DNA of 38,853 nt, from the UHGV virus genome UHGV-0046264; one strand, 5' to 3'. The notes under the pieces were generated by a model that searched no databases, was not told where the DNA came from, and saw nothing but the letters and a program-made list of their open reading frames with translations. The position numbers and the translations under genes are program-made. This stretch comes from a virus. Positions 12,572 to 19,423 of the stretch are shown here, piece by piece (the stretch's first letter is position 1; each line of letters opens with the position of its first letter).

Positions 12572-13766
<1,195 letters not shown>

Positions 13767-14575: not shown

Positions 14576-15097
14576 TGAAAATTCCTCAAGTTGGAGAGTT
14601 CTGGAACATTAAGGCGAGGTGGCAGTAATGCACCATCTGTAATCTTTTGATACTGACGTAATCGGACCTGATGTGCAACGCCTTGCAAGTATGTAACTCA
14701 TTGAAAACGATCATTTTTATCTATTGACATCAAATGGCAAACTGTCATTGTGCGGCTATGGCAAGTGGCAAATGCTTATAAATCATATGGATATAAATAG
14801 TACAGAAAGAGTTGTTTTCTCTAGGATATGAGTATACGCCCAATGCTGATTGGTTGAATTTTGTTCTTGTTTTAAAGGGTAAGAGTTTAAAGTGTTGGCA
14901 GTGATGTATTGGATAGTTAGAATTGCTGTGGGTGCTTGAGGCTATCTGCCTCGGGCATGAACACCAAAGGCAGATAGAGAAAAGCCCCAGTTAACATTAC
15001 GCGTCCTGCAAGACGCTTAACATTAATCTGAGGCCATATCTATGCGACACATAGAGATTAGCCTCTTACGGACCGAAAGGTCAAGGAGAAGCAGGCT

Positions 15098-15223
15098 ATG
15101 AAGCAGCAAAAGGCGATGTTAATCGCCCTGATCGTCATCTGTTTAACCGTCATAGTGACGGCACTGGTAACGAGGAAAGACCTCTGCGAGGTACGAATCC
15201 GAACTGGCAGACGGAGGCTCTGA
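15098..15223 (+). CDS. Hok/Gef-family type I toxin homologue, 41 aa as encoded (C-terminus shorter and divergent)
   Basis: MKQQKAMLIALIVICLTVIVTALVTRKDLCEVRIRTG matches the Hok/Gef/RelF transmembrane core, then RRRL-stop; AAGGAG ribosome binding site 9 nt upstream; structured leader with a 10-bp stem at 14933-14968. Confidence 0.7.
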   Translation: MKQQKAMLIALIVICLTVIVTALVTRKDLCEVRIRTGRRRL

Positions 15224-15305: not shown

Positions 15306-15647
15306 CTATTCTTTTTTTGCGGTATAGACTTTTTCGCCTGAGAAGTCTGGAGCTACCCAAAAGTTAATATTAAACTGAGCATCATCGCTTAGTTCAACAC
15401 GGTGCCAGTATTGTGGTGGGCTTGTTGCAAAAGCGCCAGCATTAATGACTACTTTTATCTCCGGTTCAGTAGCATTCTCATCAGCAAAACCATAATATGT
15501 TACAGTACCTTCCATCACGCATAACTGTCCAAAAACACCTGCTGCTGTATTATGATGTGTTAATAACGCTGAAGGTACGTTCTCTTTTGTGAAGAACGGA
15601 GTTGAGCGTTTGATTACCCAGTCTTTAGGAATTCTCTTGTGTGTCAT
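15306..15647 (-). CDS. YeaR-like DUF1971 protein (TehB N-terminal domain-like), 113 aa
   Basis: Pattern RSTPFF...YYGFADE..EP...FATSPPQYWHRVE...FNINFWVAP resembles YeaR/DUF1971 as I recall it; GGAGGTGGTT ribosome binding site before the internal ATG. Confidence 0.55.
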   Translation of the reverse strand: MTHKRIPKDWVIKRSTPFFTKENVPSALLTHHNTAAGVFGQLCVMEGTVTYYGFADENATEPEIKVVINAGAFATSPPQYWHRVELSDDAQFNINFWVAPDFSGEKVYTAKKE

Positions 15648-16514
15648 AACCACCTCCCATAAAACATGCATTATAAATGCACCTTTTTGAGGGTTATGTC
15701 AAGCTGTTATGAAACACATAATTGATATGTTGATTAGAGGAGAAGATAGAATCAATATGGTTGTTTTTCGTATAACTATTTGTTTTACTTTTAGTTTGTG
15801 CATTCTGTGTGTTAGGAATAACTTATTAAAGTTTAACTAAAAAATCTCGATATAGTCCGCATAGATTACTGTTACTGAATCTTATTGTGTGCATTAGTTG
15901 TGTTCTGAAATTTCAATTTAATTACTTATGATATATTTTTAACGATAAATGTTTTCCGGGTGAAAGACAGTGGGGGATGAGATAAGCAATATATCATTAA
16001 TCTTGATTATTTCCAAGATGCCTTTACTGTGCATATAAATAAATCATATACGCATCAAATAATGTAAAGGCATCCTTTTAGATATATCTTATCAAATGTT
16101 AATGATTTGAGTGGGAAACATGATTCCAGAAACTAATCATGCGGCTACTTTATAAAAATAATGCCCATATAAAACAGCCAGCGAAAAGGATTACGGATAA
16201 AAAAGGAGCGAGATGTGCATAGTTGTTATTTTCCATGTTTAACCACCTTAAATAATTGATGATGACGGGATGTGCATCTGTAATGCTTTTGTTGAAATGT
16301 TATGATAAAAAAGAACTTTTTCATAACATTAAAATGTAATTTATCTAATCGTTTTTAATAATAAGTGTTGTATTTCTATCCTTGTATCAGCTATTTGATA
16401 TGTAGTGTTTGTTCATGTTATGTGGAGCTTTACACCATAGCCAGTTTATTTATACTTTATTCGTCAGCCTGAACAACTGGCATCTGCTGCACTGCGCCAT
16501 CGAGAGATTGAGAA

Positions 16515-17114: not shown

Positions 17115-17404
17115 TGGTGGATTTACGTAAAGCGGCGCGGGGGCAGATGTGCACCGTCAGAATTCCTGGCTACTGCAATCACGATCCGGAAACGTCTGTG
17201 CTGGCGCATTACCGACTGGCGGGAACGTGCGGAACAGCGACAAAACCACACGATATGCAGGCGGCGATTGCCTGTAGCTCATGCCACGATCTAATCGACG
17301 GGCGGGTAAAAACCAGCGATTACACCAAAGAAGAATTACGCCTGATGCATGCAGAAGGTGTTTTTCGCACACAAGAAATCTGGAGAAAGGAGGGATATTT
17401 GTGA
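17114..17404 (+). CDS. DUF1364-family Cys-rich protein (YbcO-like putative nuclease), 96 aa
   Basis: MVDLRKAARGQMCTVRIPGYCNHDPETSVLAH...ACSSCHD resembles DLP12 YbcO; TAATG overlap with the upstream gene. Confidence 0.65.
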   Translation: MVDLRKAARGQMCTVRIPGYCNHDPETSVLAHYRLAGTCGTATKPHDMQAAIACSSCHDLIDGRVKTSDYTKEELRLMHAEGVFRTQEIWRKEGYL

Positions 17405-17943
17405 TTTACCCAACGAATACAGGAAAAAGCGGAGAACACCTTCGTCTCGCCACGCTGGAAAGTGTCTGGATTCAGGGCAAACTGCGTATGTGGGGGCGCT
17501 GGTCGTATATTGGCGGTGGCAGGTCAGGAAATATGTTCAATCAGTTGTTGGCATCCAAAAAATTGACGAAAACAGCCATCAATGAAGCCCTGCGCAGAAT
17601 GAAAAAAGCGGGAATAGAGAAAGCTGAGCTGGAAGCGTTTTTGCGAGAGATGATCAACGGCAAGCAAAAGAGCTGGCTGGCGCATTGTACTGATGCAGAG
17701 GCGTTATGTATTGATCGAGTCATAAGTGAGGTGCTGGCAGAGCATCCTGGATTGATTAGTGTCCTCCGGCAACGGTATGAAGGACGGGGGATGACTAAGC
17801 GCAAAATGGCTGAATTGCTAAATGATGCACATCCTGAGTGGTGTTTTAGCACATGCGAAAAGCGAATTGCTAATTGGTTGGCTGTTGCTGAGTATGCCCT
17901 ATATATTCCCATGCGAGAATCATTTGCTCAAAAAATAGCTTGA
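17401..17943 (+). CDS. Putative late-gene antiterminator Q-like protein, 180 aa, GTG start
   Basis: AAGGAGG 7 nt before the GTG; GTGA overlap with the DUF1364 stop; lies directly upstream of a short leader ending in an intrinsic terminator and then the lysis cassette. Assigned by position, not by sequence recognition. Confidence 0.5.
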   Translation: MIYPTNTGKSGEHLRLATLESVWIQGKLRMWGRWSYIGGGRSGNMFNQLLASKKLTKTAINEALRRMKKAGIEKAELEAFLREMINGKQKSWLAHCTDAEALCIDRVISEVLAEHPGLISVLRQRYEGRGMTKRKMAELLNDAHPEWCFSTCEKRIANWLAVAEYALYIPMRESFAQKIA

Positions 17944-18026
17944 TTTTTTACGCATAAACTGCTTCAATTCCGGTATGCTTCGCAAAGCTGTATCGCGAGG
18001 CGAACCAAGCGCATGAACTTTACCAG
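17944..18026 (+). promoter_or_regulatory. Predicted late promoter and qut-like region (PR' analogue)
   Basis: Located between the Q-like gene and a tR'-like terminator; no confident -35/-10 hexamers assigned. Confidence 0.3.
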
Positions 18027-18050
18027 AACCCGCCATTGAGCGGGTTTTGT
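18027..18050 (+). terminator. Intrinsic terminator (tR'-like): AACCCGC-CATTGA-GCGGGTT followed by TTTTGTTGTTT
   Basis: 7-bp GC-rich stem plus T-tract about 85 bp downstream of the Q-like stop. Confidence 0.7.
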
Positions 18051-18164
18051 TGTTTCTGGTACTGGTGAACCTGATGTTTCATTTCTGGAGCGCGATTCCT
18101 GGCGGAATACCTAGAATCGAGACATTCTGGTAAAATTGTTTTCAGTACAGGATGTGGAGGTGAG

Positions 18165-18734
18165 ATGAGAGAACTACCTAAAGATTATTTTTTAGGAGTA
18201 GATGATGAGCTCGTCGATTATCTTGAAAAACAAGGGGAAGAGACGATACGAGAGATTCATCTTTCTAACAAAACCAATGTTGAGAATGGATACAAACTTC
18301 TGAACATTCAGATTGTTGGAATTGGTTCATCTTTTTTATTGCTGACACAGAAAACTAATTTCGATTTTCTCACCGCCGGAATTACCACATTTACATTACT
18401 ATGGACATGGTGCGCCATTTACTTGGTATGTACTGGTTTATCTGTGAAGGTTAGGGGCCTGATCAATGCCCCTCCTGATCATATATATCATGAAAAATAT
18501 AAGGATATGGAGCCCTCGAGCTTTAAAATATTCGCTGATGCAGGATATTTAGGACCTGATAAGTTATTGCCGCTTATACGAAGGTATCGCCTTGTTGACT
18601 TGAGTGATACAGCAAGAGAGTTACTGTTGGAAAATGAGAAAATCCGCACGAGTCTCGATAAAGCAAGGATGTATACCATCCTTGCTCCGGTAGCGGCGAT
18701 GTTTATCTCGGCTGTTTTTTTATATGTTCAATGA
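18165..18734 (+). CDS. Hypothetical multi-pass membrane protein in an AT-rich moron between Q/tR' and the lysis genes, 189 aa
   Basis: GGAGGTGAG ribosome binding site; soluble N-terminus (~55 aa), two central hydrophobic helices and a C-terminal hydrophobic helix; AT-rich composition unlike flanking phage genes. Confidence 0.6.
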   Translation: MRELPKDYFLGVDDELVDYLEKQGEETIREIHLSNKTNVENGYKLLNIQIVGIGSSFLLLTQKTNFDFLTAGITTFTLLWTWCAIYLVCTGLSVKVRGLINAPPDHIYHEKYKDMEPSSFKIFADAGYLGPDKLLPLIRRYRLVDLSDTARELLLENEKIRTSLDKARMYTILAPVAAMFISAVFLYVQ

Positions 18735-18864
18735 CTGAGTCGGCAGAATCTCCAACAAAAACACGACGTGTAGCAAAGTCTGTAGTACTTTGTGTTGGAG
18801 TTGGTTTTGGTGCCACGGGTTGCTGAGGTTTATTTTCACCTTGTGGTTTGTTTTTTTCAGACAT
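18703..18864 (-). CDS. Hypothetical small Lys/Pro/Gln-rich protein, 53 aa, convergent with and overlapping the 3' end of the 189-aa ORF
   Basis: AAAGAGGA ribosome binding site before the ATG; MSEKNKPQGENKPQQPVAPKPTPTQSTTDFATRRVFVGDSADSVIEHIKKQPR; 32-nt 3' overlap with the opposing gene. Confidence 0.45.
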   Translation of the reverse strand: MSEKNKPQGENKPQQPVAPKPTPTQSTTDFATRRVFVGDSADSVIEHIKKQPR

Positions 18865-19081
18865 AAAAATCCTCTTTGTTTGAATTGTTACTTTTGGCGA
18901 TTTAACGATATCAAACACGAGTATATACCGCCAGAAGCTTAATCTGGCACTCCATCTGGCCCCGGCATGTCCCGGGGCTTTTTCGTTGTTAGGCTCTGGA
19001 AACATCCTCGACTTCTTGTTAGCAAGCCTGAGAGCCTGAATCTTACACTTAGCACCATCCGAACTCTCGGAGGTGAGGCTT

Positions 19082-19423
19082 ATGAAAATGCACAATGCCC
19101 CTCATTCCTGGCCTGACTTACTGGAACTCTTACAAAGTTGGTGGCGTGGAGATACGCCGCTGGGTGCAGTGGTTATGTCAATTATTATGGCTGGTTTGCG
19201 CATTGCCTATTTTGGCGGTGGCGGCGGCTGGAAACGAAAAACGCTTGAGATTCTGCTTTGTGGTGCTCTGACGCTGACCTTTGCATCCGCGCTTGAGTAT
19301 GTCGGATGGCCTAAATCACTTTCTGTTGCCATTGGTGGTGGGGTGGGGCTGATTGGTGTTGATGCTATTCGTGGTGCGGCAATGAGGGTCATCGGTAACA
19401 AGTTCGGTGCCCATAAGGAGTAA
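19082..19423 (+). CDS. Holin, lambda S-like class I (three predicted transmembrane helices), 113 aa, with MKM dual-start motif
   Basis: GGAGGTGAGG ribosome binding site; starts MKMHNAP (Met-Lys-Met as in lambda S107/S105); three hydrophobic segments; directly precedes the endolysin. Confidence 0.75.
   Translation: MKMHNAPHSWPDLLELLQSWWRGDTPLGAVVMSIIMAGLRIAYFGGGGGWKRKTLEILLCGALTLTFASALEYVGWPKSLSVAIGGGVGLIGVDAIRGAAMRVIGNKFGAHKE

Follow-up and report, generated by a model that had tools for sequence, protein, structure and literature searches.

The viral genome UHGV-0046264, a stretch of 38,853 nucleotides (nt; hereafter, the window), is a Rac-like lambdoid prophage of Escherichia coli that carries, between its late regulator and its lysis genes, a cassette of two convergent genes. 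The larger gene, on the plus strand at 18165–18734, encodes a predicted three-helix inner-membrane protein of 189 amino acids (aa); its ATG at 18165 follows the Shine–Dalgarno (SD) sequence GGAGGTGA at 18156–18163. The smaller gene, on the minus strand at 18703–18864, encodes a hydrophilic, Pro/Gln/Lys-rich protein of 53 aa, and its ATG is preceded by AAGAGGA. The two coding regions overlap tail to tail by 32 nt (18703–18734). A previous sequence-only reading of the window had described, at this place, an AT-rich insertion consisting of a multi-pass membrane protein with a strong ribosome binding site and a convergent, 3'-overlapping Lys/Pro-rich open reading frame (ORF), situated between a tR'-like terminator and the holin. 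All of these elements stand, and the proposed comparisons of homology, base composition, prophages with and without the insert, and coding evolution of the reverse ORF, as given below, agree with it; the reading had, however, overlooked a plus-strand terminator at 18958–18979 and a structured non-coding block at 18872–18948.

The hydrophobic helices of the 189-aa protein are located at approximately residues 44–62, 68–92, and 168–188, and its AlphaFold2 (AF2) model, with a mean pLDDT of 83, contains long helices at residues 14–62, 68–92, and 134–188. The hydrophobic parts of these helices would form a membrane bundle with a helical stalk in the cytosol; the protein has a helical cytosolic region of ~75 aa and ends with a transmembrane (TM) helix. 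Hydropathy, both computed and calculated by hand, is strong in TM2 and TM3, but TM1 is more polar and Gly/Ser-rich and reaches ~1.7 over 17 residues only. The 43 N-terminal residues, which include a helix predicted to be cytosolic, are acidic, with 11 Asp/Glu versus 5 Lys/Arg. TM2 is followed by RRYRL, so an N-in/C-out topology is likely. The homologues form ~100 clusters, nearly all exactly 189 aa long, down to ~40% identity, and originate from Escherichia, Klebsiella, Citrobacter, Serratia, Proteus, Providencia, Morganella, Yersinia, Pantoea, Salmonella, and other genera. Their alignment contains 23 invariant positions, and the TM1 motif IVGIGSSFLLLTQ is strikingly conserved. Several clusters of truncated large proteins (96–130 aa) were also observed in E. 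coli, E. marmotae, and Klebsiella. An exhaustive hidden Markov model (HMM) search of 1.84 billion representatives returned only 102 proteins, so the family is small. Neither cassette protein belongs to a characterized family, in line with the sequence-only reading: Pfam and NCBIfam gave no match for either, PADLOC-DB 2.0.0 gave 0 hits at E ≤ 1 for either and 0 for one distant relative, and a profile search against PDB sequences returned nothing. In PHROGs, phrog_11870 matches the 189-aa protein over residues 1–189 at 1e-107, and phrog_14506 matches the 53-aa protein at 6e-33 over profile positions 19–71, both being annotated as 'unknown function'. Literature searches with the accessions, PHROG identifiers, and peptide motifs of either protein found no papers, and general searches gave analogies only.

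The 53-aa protein contains 7 Pro, 6 Lys, and 5 Gln and is devoid of any hydrophobic segment. Its conserved core, DF(A/S)xxR(x)2VGDSA(D/E), is followed by a basic tail, and the family in Enterobacterales shares the layout MS-x-x-NKP ... KPQ ... KP-P ... DF(A/S/T)xxR(x)2VGDSA(D/E) plus the basic tail. Modeled alone by AF2, the protein is of low confidence (pLDDT of 63 and pTM of 0.17) and essentially unfolded. We examined its coding status with 44 distinct nucleotide versions from Enterobacterales. None of the 44 contains a stop in the frame of the small ORF, versus 27–44 of 44 in the other five frames; the median pairwise ratio of nonsynonymous to synonymous rates (dN/dS) is 0.28, a value that holds for the motif as well as for the N-terminal half with its low complexity; and the entropy at codon positions 1, 2, and 3 is 0.99, 0.72, and 1.41, respectively. 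Judged by these patterns, the small ORF is a real coding gene under purifying selection. In RefSeq/PGAP (WP_152948782 in NZ_CP128875) and in PHROG 14506, the gene is instead taken to start from a GTG at 18918, giving a product of 71 aa. We rejected this 18-codon upstream extension as coding, since its frame is broken in Trabulsiella (locus L006) where the DNA is conserved. The ATG at 18864 is likely the true start, because the extension overlaps a conserved hairpin and is out of frame in the Trabulsiella copy; the 71-aa call is thus probably a mis-call, and the annotation of the small gene should be corrected to a start at ATG 18864 with a product of 53 aa.

We gathered 91 Enterobacterales loci from IMG/VR, GTDB genomes, and assemblies, and found an intact convergent small ORF in 89 of them; two loci that were missed at first have variant motifs, and the exceptions are one frameshift in a poly-A run and one ambiguous base. 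The pair is always convergent, with an overlap of 20–35 nt in Enterobacterales, 0 nt in Pasteurella, and 35–53 nt in most Burkholderiales loci examined, extending to 92 nt in locus L107 if the longest ORF is taken. The Pasteurella homologue of the large protein is 34% identical, and a convergent 41-aa ORF, MSNQKPSQPKPQPTPSKPQQPAYKKPVPVFIGDSVDIPKKK, lies end to end with it. A remote subfamily from Burkholderiales, Ralstonia, and Achromobacter shares only ~16–20% identity with the enterobacterial proteins, with an hhalign probability of 98.6% and an E-value of 7e-16. This subfamily also has a convergent overlapping Pro/Gln/Lys-rich ORF, e.g., M-TSN-KP--PRPNPQPVYR-P--DGF-R ..., for which the non-overlapping part in three loci gives synonymous differences (pS) of 0.56–0.82 versus nonsynonymous differences (pN) of 0.12–0.15. 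The small proteins of Enterobacterales and Burkholderiales appear to be related, based on their position, composition, and short shared motifs, and on the bridge provided by the Pasteurella protein (QPAYKKP...VFIGDS). Because the pairing, the overlap, and the coding selection recur in such distant relatives, the gene pair and its tail-to-tail layout are ancient and selected, and the cassette is almost certainly a real, co-inherited two-gene unit maintained by selection. Decayed copies in Symbiopectobacterium and Yersinia pekkanenii (L012 and L013) retain only the 5' half of the large gene.

Phage isolates that carry the family comprise four vB_EcoS records and pPE4. The latter (L002; PP818812.1, 'Actinobacillus phage vB_Apl-pPE4') has an enterobacterial lambdoid gene set, including hok and DUF1367/DUF1364/DUF1133, with a leader nearly identical to that of E. 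coli, and it matches the E. coli 'plasmid' CP100067.1 (47.7 kb), which is of the same size, with an equal score. Its host assignment looks doubtful, or it looks like a phage-plasmid. In pPE4, the PR'–tR' unit sits after an extra gene and not directly after Q.

The cassette region is 100% identical in several complete E. coli genomes, such as NZ_CP128875, where RefSeq lists the order ydaT/U/V ... KilA-N, hok, DUF1367 (NinB-like), DUF1364, DUF1133, two 'hypothetical proteins', lambda-family holin, GH24 endolysin, Rz, and trkG. Outside the cassette, the upstream neighbor is the gene of a Q-like late regulator of the DUF1133 family (17401–17943, plus strand, its RefSeq start mapped from locus L001), whose product matches Pfam DUF1133 at 1e-106 and Phage_antitermQ at a borderline 5e-6 (26.8 bits versus a cut-off of 26). 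The downstream neighbor is the first lysis gene, a lambda-family holin (19082–19423, plus strand; PF05106 at 2e-27 and RefSeq annotation). Both junctions of the cassette-specific DNA with the phage backbone were mapped, to 18060 and 19067. At the left, an alignment shows that slot variants diverge right after the terminator, at ~18060; at the right, similarity to cassette-free, lambda-type holin regions begins at ~19068 of the window (query position 169). The leader and tR' (17937–18060), which occupy ~110–120 nt after the DUF1133 gene, are present in ~1445 of 5426 E. coli genomes, O157 prophages included, but the DNA past ~18060 is found in only ~223–250 of the 5426. Other prophages with the same leader (L003–L005) hold tRNAs with a small ORF, an STM1630-family gene with a tRNA, or a tRNA-Met with DUF6645/DUF1378/DUF826. 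Since both junctions are mapped and other prophages fill the slot differently, the cassette is ~1 kb of DNA in a true hypervariable cargo slot, a slot for which stx and nmpC are known cargo. We considered the conserved upstream leader as part of the cassette and rejected it, as this leader is the PR'–tR' unit of the phage and is common to unrelated slot variants.

The composition of the cassette is also distinct, with a GC content of 0.39–0.41 versus 0.47–0.51 in the surrounding phage genes, and a GC content at third codon positions of 0.36 in the 189-aa gene and 0.20 in the 53-aa gene versus 0.45–0.52 in flanking genes. The cassette is moron-like cargo: it shows extra DNA in a differently filled slot, a deviating base composition, and its own terminator, as in the moron definition of Hendrix and Juhala; as for an own promoter, only the -10-like TAAAAT and a candidate promoter of the small gene are present, both falling below the criteria of the consensus scan. 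Elsewhere in the window, Rfam identified RalA (1608–1786, 225 bits), the antitoxin small RNA of the ralR/RalA type I system, and sok (14930–15100, 104 bits), and so the prophage already holds two RNA-antitoxin modules. An IS5 transposase (window ~12718–13698, mapped from L001) splits the early region between a hypothetical gene and the KilA-N gene, and a stretch with a GC content of 0.28–0.32 (15600–16400, mapped from L001) lies between a DUF1971 gene and the NinB-like gene.

We surveyed the slot in 35–44 non-redundant Enterobacterales loci. In most, the nearest upstream gene encodes a Q antiterminator; four Pfam families are represented, PF03589 (nine loci), PF06530 (six), DUF1133 (five), and PF06323 (two), some proteins matching two of the four; the remaining loci have a small gene between Q and the cassette. 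Downstream are holins of at least six families and endolysins of several families. As the position is constant while the Q and holin flanks vary, the slot itself is conserved. Throughout these loci, the minus-strand small gene is flanked by the plus-strand 189-aa gene and the plus-strand holin gene and lies downstream of PR'/tR', as in the window. In Burkholderiales-type prophages, the pair mostly follows RusA or a late regulator and precedes the terminase, and other distant relatives occur in a myovirus tail module, near an immunity region, and at chromosomal sites outside prophages. Wherever phage genes flank the pair, the large gene is co-oriented with lytic transcription. Two distant relatives adjoin genes related to defense, a DUF4145 protein matching PD-T7-4 in one (L019, 5638–6423) and a fused E2-E1-JAB protein with an LmuA-like/MBL protein in the other (L105, 4955–8470), which suggests a defense-island or hot-spot context for these two copies.

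The most conserved DNA of the cassette is not in either gene but in ~45 nt beside the start of the small gene, which are near-invariant across cassettes that are ~50% diverged. This block forms a two-tier hairpin, stem-loop 1 (SL1, 18872–18921), abutting the SD sequence and start codon of the small gene, and reads YTGATATCGTTAAATCGCCARAAGTAAC on the small-gene strand. The outer stem is composed of GTTTGA (18878–83) and TCAAAC (18911–16), the inner stem of GTTA (18887–90) and TAAC (18903–06), and the enclosed 12-nt loop CTTTTGGCGATT (18891–18902) is nearly invariant. The SL1 fold is the minimum free energy structure in 19 of 20 diverse sequences. Compensatory changes were observed in both stems, GUUA/UAAC, GUUG/CAAC, and GUCA/UGAC in the inner stem and UUUGA/UCAAA and UCUGA/UCAGA, with register shifts, in the outer stem. 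SL1 is more stable as plus-strand RNA in 17 of the 20, with means of -8.6 kcal/mol for the plus strand versus -5.9 kcal/mol for the minus strand. It is followed by SL2 (18930–18948), a hairpin with the arms GCCAGA and TCTGGC, which covary to GCCGC/GCGGC in L063 and L069 and form a U.G pair on the plus strand only in L083 and L087. The plus-strand intrinsic terminator, an 8-bp GC stem with a T run, spans 18958–18984 (18958–18979 in the scan), and an equivalent GC hairpin with a T run is present in most cassette copies. Altogether, the plus-strand RNA of 18866–18990 folds into three stem-loops with a z-score of -3.8. A transcript across the large gene therefore has a structured 3' end that is exactly antisense to the 5' untranslated region (UTR), SD sequence, and ATG of the small gene. 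The small-gene mRNA, for its part, extends into the 3' part of the large gene; the terminator scan found no intrinsic terminator on the minus strand. Rfam contains no family matching the cassette region, at gathering thresholds or at E ≤ 1.

Several further observations concern these hairpins. In L090 (IMG/VR UViG_2778261065_000002), the large protein is 58% identical to that of the window, yet SL2, the terminator, and the DNA beyond are nearly identical to the window (18900–19070); because the switch falls inside the hairpin block, variants of the cassette seem to recombine at this block. CGCCAGA (18931–18937), in the 5' arm of SL2, is complementary to the SL1 loop, and TTCCTGGCGGAAT (18100–18113), located in the 5' UTR of the large gene in the E. 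coli variant only, resembles both the SL1 loop and the SL2 5' arm; alternative pairings among the three elements are possible.

The candidate promoters were read by hand. In the phage backbone, a candidate late promoter PR' (TTGATT, a 17-nt spacer, and TTCAAT; 17940–17968, plus strand) is conserved together with the leader in five unrelated slot variants and is not reported by the consensus scan. It is followed by the tR'-like intrinsic terminator (18024–18056; 18024–18049 in the scan), the hairpin of which lies at the 3' end of the folded leader. A -10-like TATGCT is also found at the transcript start in the 17937–18060 unit. Transcription from PR' would yield a short leader RNA of ~80 nt ending at tR', analogous to lambda 6S RNA or StxS. 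Downstream of this terminator, comparison of the 44 non-redundant loci revealed the box CATTCTG-GTAAAAT (18123–18136, plus strand), whose -10-like TAAAAT lies 28 nt before the large-gene ATG. Most copies keep (C/G)ATTNAG-GTAAAAT 28–37 nt before this ATG and always downstream of the terminator, and (G/A)TAA(A/G)AT occurs at a like distance in most of the 44 loci. The box may belong either to a promoter that does not depend on Q or to the 5' UTR of the 189-aa gene. For the small gene, a candidate promoter on the minus strand (18922–18950) consists of a -35 GTGCCA (18950–18945), a 17-nt spacer, and a -10 TATATA (18927–18922), and would start the mRNA at ~18916, where SL1 begins on this strand. 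In other loci, a TAT-rich hexamer, only loosely conserved, is present 11–13 nt upstream of the hairpin. Readings of the conserved block as a sigma-28, sigma-54, or sigma-E promoter were rejected, as none fits by inspection.

The arrangement of the cassette, an antisense gene nested among co-oriented operon genes, is that of a noncontiguous operon. Such an operon, Tai/Ati, is located in the Q-dependent late operon of coliphage phi80, where the antisense tai provides immunity; it is active in the lysogen and down-regulated when Q is supplied. The co-oriented ati of the late operon, expressed only once Q acts, is the counter-defense gene or antidote. Tai itself, a soluble protein of 26 kDa, interferes with phages by blocking the assembly of tails (PMC11364771). 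As in Tai/Ati, two opposite-strand genes of a lambdoid phage lie within a Q-controlled transcript, but the two systems have no sequence or fold relationship, and here the antisense gene encodes a disordered peptide of ~50 aa and the late gene a protein with three TM helices. The slots also differ, that of tai being upstream of the packaging genes and that of the cassette being after Q and before lysis. In the case of Tha/Ith of the Staphylococcus aureus phage 80alpha, mutual transcriptional interference ties an effector and a small inhibitor to the life cycle, Tha being a HEPN RNase that this Gram-positive phage encodes in its cI (lysogeny) operon (PMC11087260). The cassette resembles Tha/Ith in having two genes antisense to each other, one of them small, and reciprocal expression is suggested for it only by analogy; there is no homology, and neither HEPN nor any other known domain was found in the cassette proteins.

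Other systems share single traits with the cassette. The txpA/RatA and bsrG/SR4 pairs of Bacillus subtilis are convergent, 3'-overlapping type I loci of prophages, in which the toxins are hydrophobic peptides of <60 aa and the antitoxins are non-coding RNAs. The cassette is likewise prophage-borne and convergent, with 3'-end complementarity and a membrane-targeted partner, but its membrane protein is 189 aa long and its antisense partner is a conserved protein-coding gene. Compared with other cargo of the Q-to-lysis slot (stx, nmpC, tRNAs, DUF6645/DUF1378/DUF826, and the STM1630 family), which is expressed upon antitermination by Q, the cassette occupies the same hypervariable position after PR'–tR'; its genes are unrelated to these, and it is bidirectional with its own structured RNA region and terminator. 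In architecture, the large protein is reminiscent of SLATT, PycTM, YLATT, and 8xMP, which are short proteins with two to three TM helices and a cytosolic helical stalk from mobile or defense loci. However, no profile match is significant, and no sensor or nucleotide-signaling gene is associated with the cassette. When 48 remote relatives were scanned against Pfam, all matches were TM-biased and below threshold, those to effector domains being PycTM in 1 of 48 members at an E-value of 0.016, YLATT at 0.054, and 8xMP in 4 of 48 at 0.019. HK97 gp15 and P22 SieA, cited in PMC11364771 and PMC10883804, are small, multi-pass inner-membrane proteins for superinfection exclusion encoded by moron-like inserts. 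These resemble the large protein in size class, location, and type of insert in a temperate enterobacterial phage, but they are single, prophage-expressed genes that have no link to the late operon and lack a conserved partner on the opposite strand, and we detected no sequence similarity between them and the cassette. The layout of a Q-to-lysis cargo and that of an antisense-nested antagonistic pair are thus known already; the components, the deeply conserved convergent overlap, and the covarying RNA element are new.

The data establish the anatomy, the joint conservation and coding status of the two genes, the slot, and the RNA structure; from these and the analogies, we infer how the promoters, the reciprocal expression, the identity of the effector, and any phenotype may fit together. 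The cassette would be a self-contained, horizontally mobile accessory unit of temperate phages, the two products of which are antagonistic partners; because their genes are transcribed convergently and antisense to each other, only one of them would be expressed at a time. The large gene would be the first gene of the Q-dependent late operon, and the small gene, which has start signals of its own, would be nested antisense to it. With late transcription halted at tR' in the lysogen, the small gene would be the active partner; any large-gene mRNA would end at the cassette terminator, with its SL1–SL2–terminator region complementary to the 5' UTR, SD sequence, and start codon of the small gene. 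Upon induction, Q-modified RNA polymerase would pass tR' and give the membrane protein in bulk as the first late product, and the small gene would be silenced via polymerase collision and RNA pairing. The effector may act on the inner membrane by means of oligomerizing Gly/Ser-rich helices, with the small, labile-looking protein as its antidote or regulator. For the phage, the module might serve as an exclusion or abortive-infection device, or as a membrane device of the late phase.

We tentatively favor, at somewhat less than an even chance, this reading of the cassette as a mutually antisense noncontiguous-operon pair, with the membrane protein as the putative effector and the small one as its antidote or regulator. 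The membrane protein is favored as the effector because it is structured and better conserved and its Gly/Ser-rich TM1 is suited to helix packing, and the small protein as the antidote or regulator because it is disordered, of low complexity, and fast-evolving. The same assignment is favored by the basic tail of the small protein, which complements the acidic N-terminus of the membrane protein, and by the decay pattern in Leclercia adecarboxylata NCTC13032 (L011), where two frameshifts disrupt the large gene but none affects the small one. In addition, the obligate pairing, the two coding genes, their tail-to-tail layout, the conserved RNA elements of the antisense zone, the fixed slot, the experimental precedents, and the defense-gene neighbors of distant copies are in keeping with this reading.

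Several results weigh against it. The structure searches gave generic helical bundles only, and so the label of a membrane effector comes purely from architecture; there is no homology to a housekeeping or structural protein, which would have refuted the sequence-only reading. The consensus scan predicted no promoter for either cassette gene, and a consistent -35 was not found for the GTAAAAT box. In a near-identical E. coli copy (L041), the small ORF is frameshifted and the large gene is intact, the frameshift being in a poly-A run, where it may be a sequencing error. The family is carried by merely 2 of 72,556 plasmid records, both resembling phage DNA; this near absence argues against a generic addiction toxin/antitoxin, and a plasmid-borne module like typical toxin–antitoxin systems was rejected on the same count. 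Moreover, the polarity could be the reverse, as the antisense gene of phi80 is the immune effector.

Reversed in this way, as in Tai/Ati, the small protein would be a lysogenic-conversion or immune factor produced constitutively in the lysogen, for instance inhibiting a step that incoming phages need, and the membrane protein would be a late antagonist that prevents self-inhibition. Its position matches that in phi80, where the nested antisense tai is immune and the late-operon ati is counter-defense, and the place as the first gene after the late regulator, kept across Gamma- and Betaproteobacteria, would fit an antidote that must be on hand as soon as the late phase begins. We nevertheless regard it as unlikely, given that a low-complexity protein of 41–55 aa with no predicted fold would be an unusual effector, that the larger and better conserved partner resembles an effector more, and that Leclercia kept the small gene and lost the large one, although an effector without its antidote should not be tolerated on induction (this prophage may be defective). 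Alternatively, the membrane protein could be a lysis accessory, namely a lysis-timing modulator or a membrane-energy or antiholin-like factor that is co-expressed with the holin, endolysin, and spanins and regulated by the small protein. An inner-membrane product encoded in the late operon would suit such a role, and in every non-redundant Enterobacterales locus the lysis genes directly follow the cassette, whatever the family of Q, holin, or endolysin. The same diversity means that the factor would need to work with at least six unrelated holin families. No holin Pfam family was matched by the window protein or the 48 relatives, nor is there similarity to antiholin families, and the 189-aa protein ends inside TM3, without the charged C-terminal tail typical of holins. 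Furthermore, a terminator separates the large gene from the holin, most Rac-like prophages lyse without the cassette, and distant relatives occupy other places, among them a tail module, sites ahead of terminase genes or next to immunity genes, and sites outside prophages. Taken with these points, a lysis accessory is improbable.

The cassette might also be a plain lysogenic-conversion moron that constitutively expresses a superinfection-exclusion membrane protein, as HK97 gp15 and P22 SieA do, from its own promoter and with its own terminator, the antisense gene acting mainly as an RNA-level brake. The distinct base composition, the conserved -10-like box downstream of tR', the downstream terminator, and a prophage-encoded inner-membrane product agree with this picture. 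However, purifying selection acts on the protein sequence of the small ORF in both of two remote subfamilies, so the small peptide itself matters; there is no homology to known superinfection-exclusion proteins or PADLOC models, the promoter is only a candidate, and the strict late-operon orientation would be needless. We consider such a moron as improbable as a lysis accessory. The poorest account, with very little probability, is a classical type I or type II toxin–antitoxin addiction module, or a chance pair of non-functional ORFs. The sequence-only reading had entertained a toxin/antitoxin-like module, which a membrane protein with a small overlapping antisense gene, in a prophage that also has hok/sok and ralR/RalA, might suggest, but this part of it does not hold in the classical sense. 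For type I, the putative toxin is a 189-aa membrane protein instead of a peptide of <60 aa, and its antisense partner encodes a conserved, hydrophilic protein. For type II, the genes are convergent instead of forming an operon, and neither protein has a helix-turn-helix, ribbon-helix-helix, AbrB, or other domain that would mark a DNA-binding antitoxin. An addiction module is likewise at odds with the plasmid records, and chance is excluded by the conservation and the dN/dS values.

The preferred reading of an effector paired with an antidote can be extended further. The cassette may be an ancient, phage-borne bistable switch spread across Beta- and Gammaproteobacteria, in which a three-helix effector and a disordered antidote of ~50 aa repress each other via overlapping mRNAs, with the structured 3' UTR of the effector mRNA serving as antisense regulator of the translation start of the antidote and, in lambdoid phages, the whole wired to Q so that the effector is the very first late function. 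It would found a class not recognized before, a toxin/antitoxin-like or abortive-infection/exclusion system of a new type that combines protein and RNA antagonism; we regard this extension as doubtful.

The cassette is small (~1 kb) and self-contained. It is carried by ~4% of complete E. coli genomes, in which both proteins are annotated just as 'hypothetical', and by many prophages of Klebsiella, Citrobacter, Serratia, Salmonella, Yersinia, Proteus, Pasteurella, and Burkholderiales. The obligate pairing, the convergent overlap, the covarying hairpin, and the position as first late gene argue for a regulated function that is important to temperate phages. If the cassette indeed pairs an effector with an antidote, the repertoire of phage defense or counter-defense would gain a new system acting on the membrane, and the cassette would be a third, mechanistically distinct case of a noncontiguous operon that couples the accessory functions of a prophage to its life cycle.

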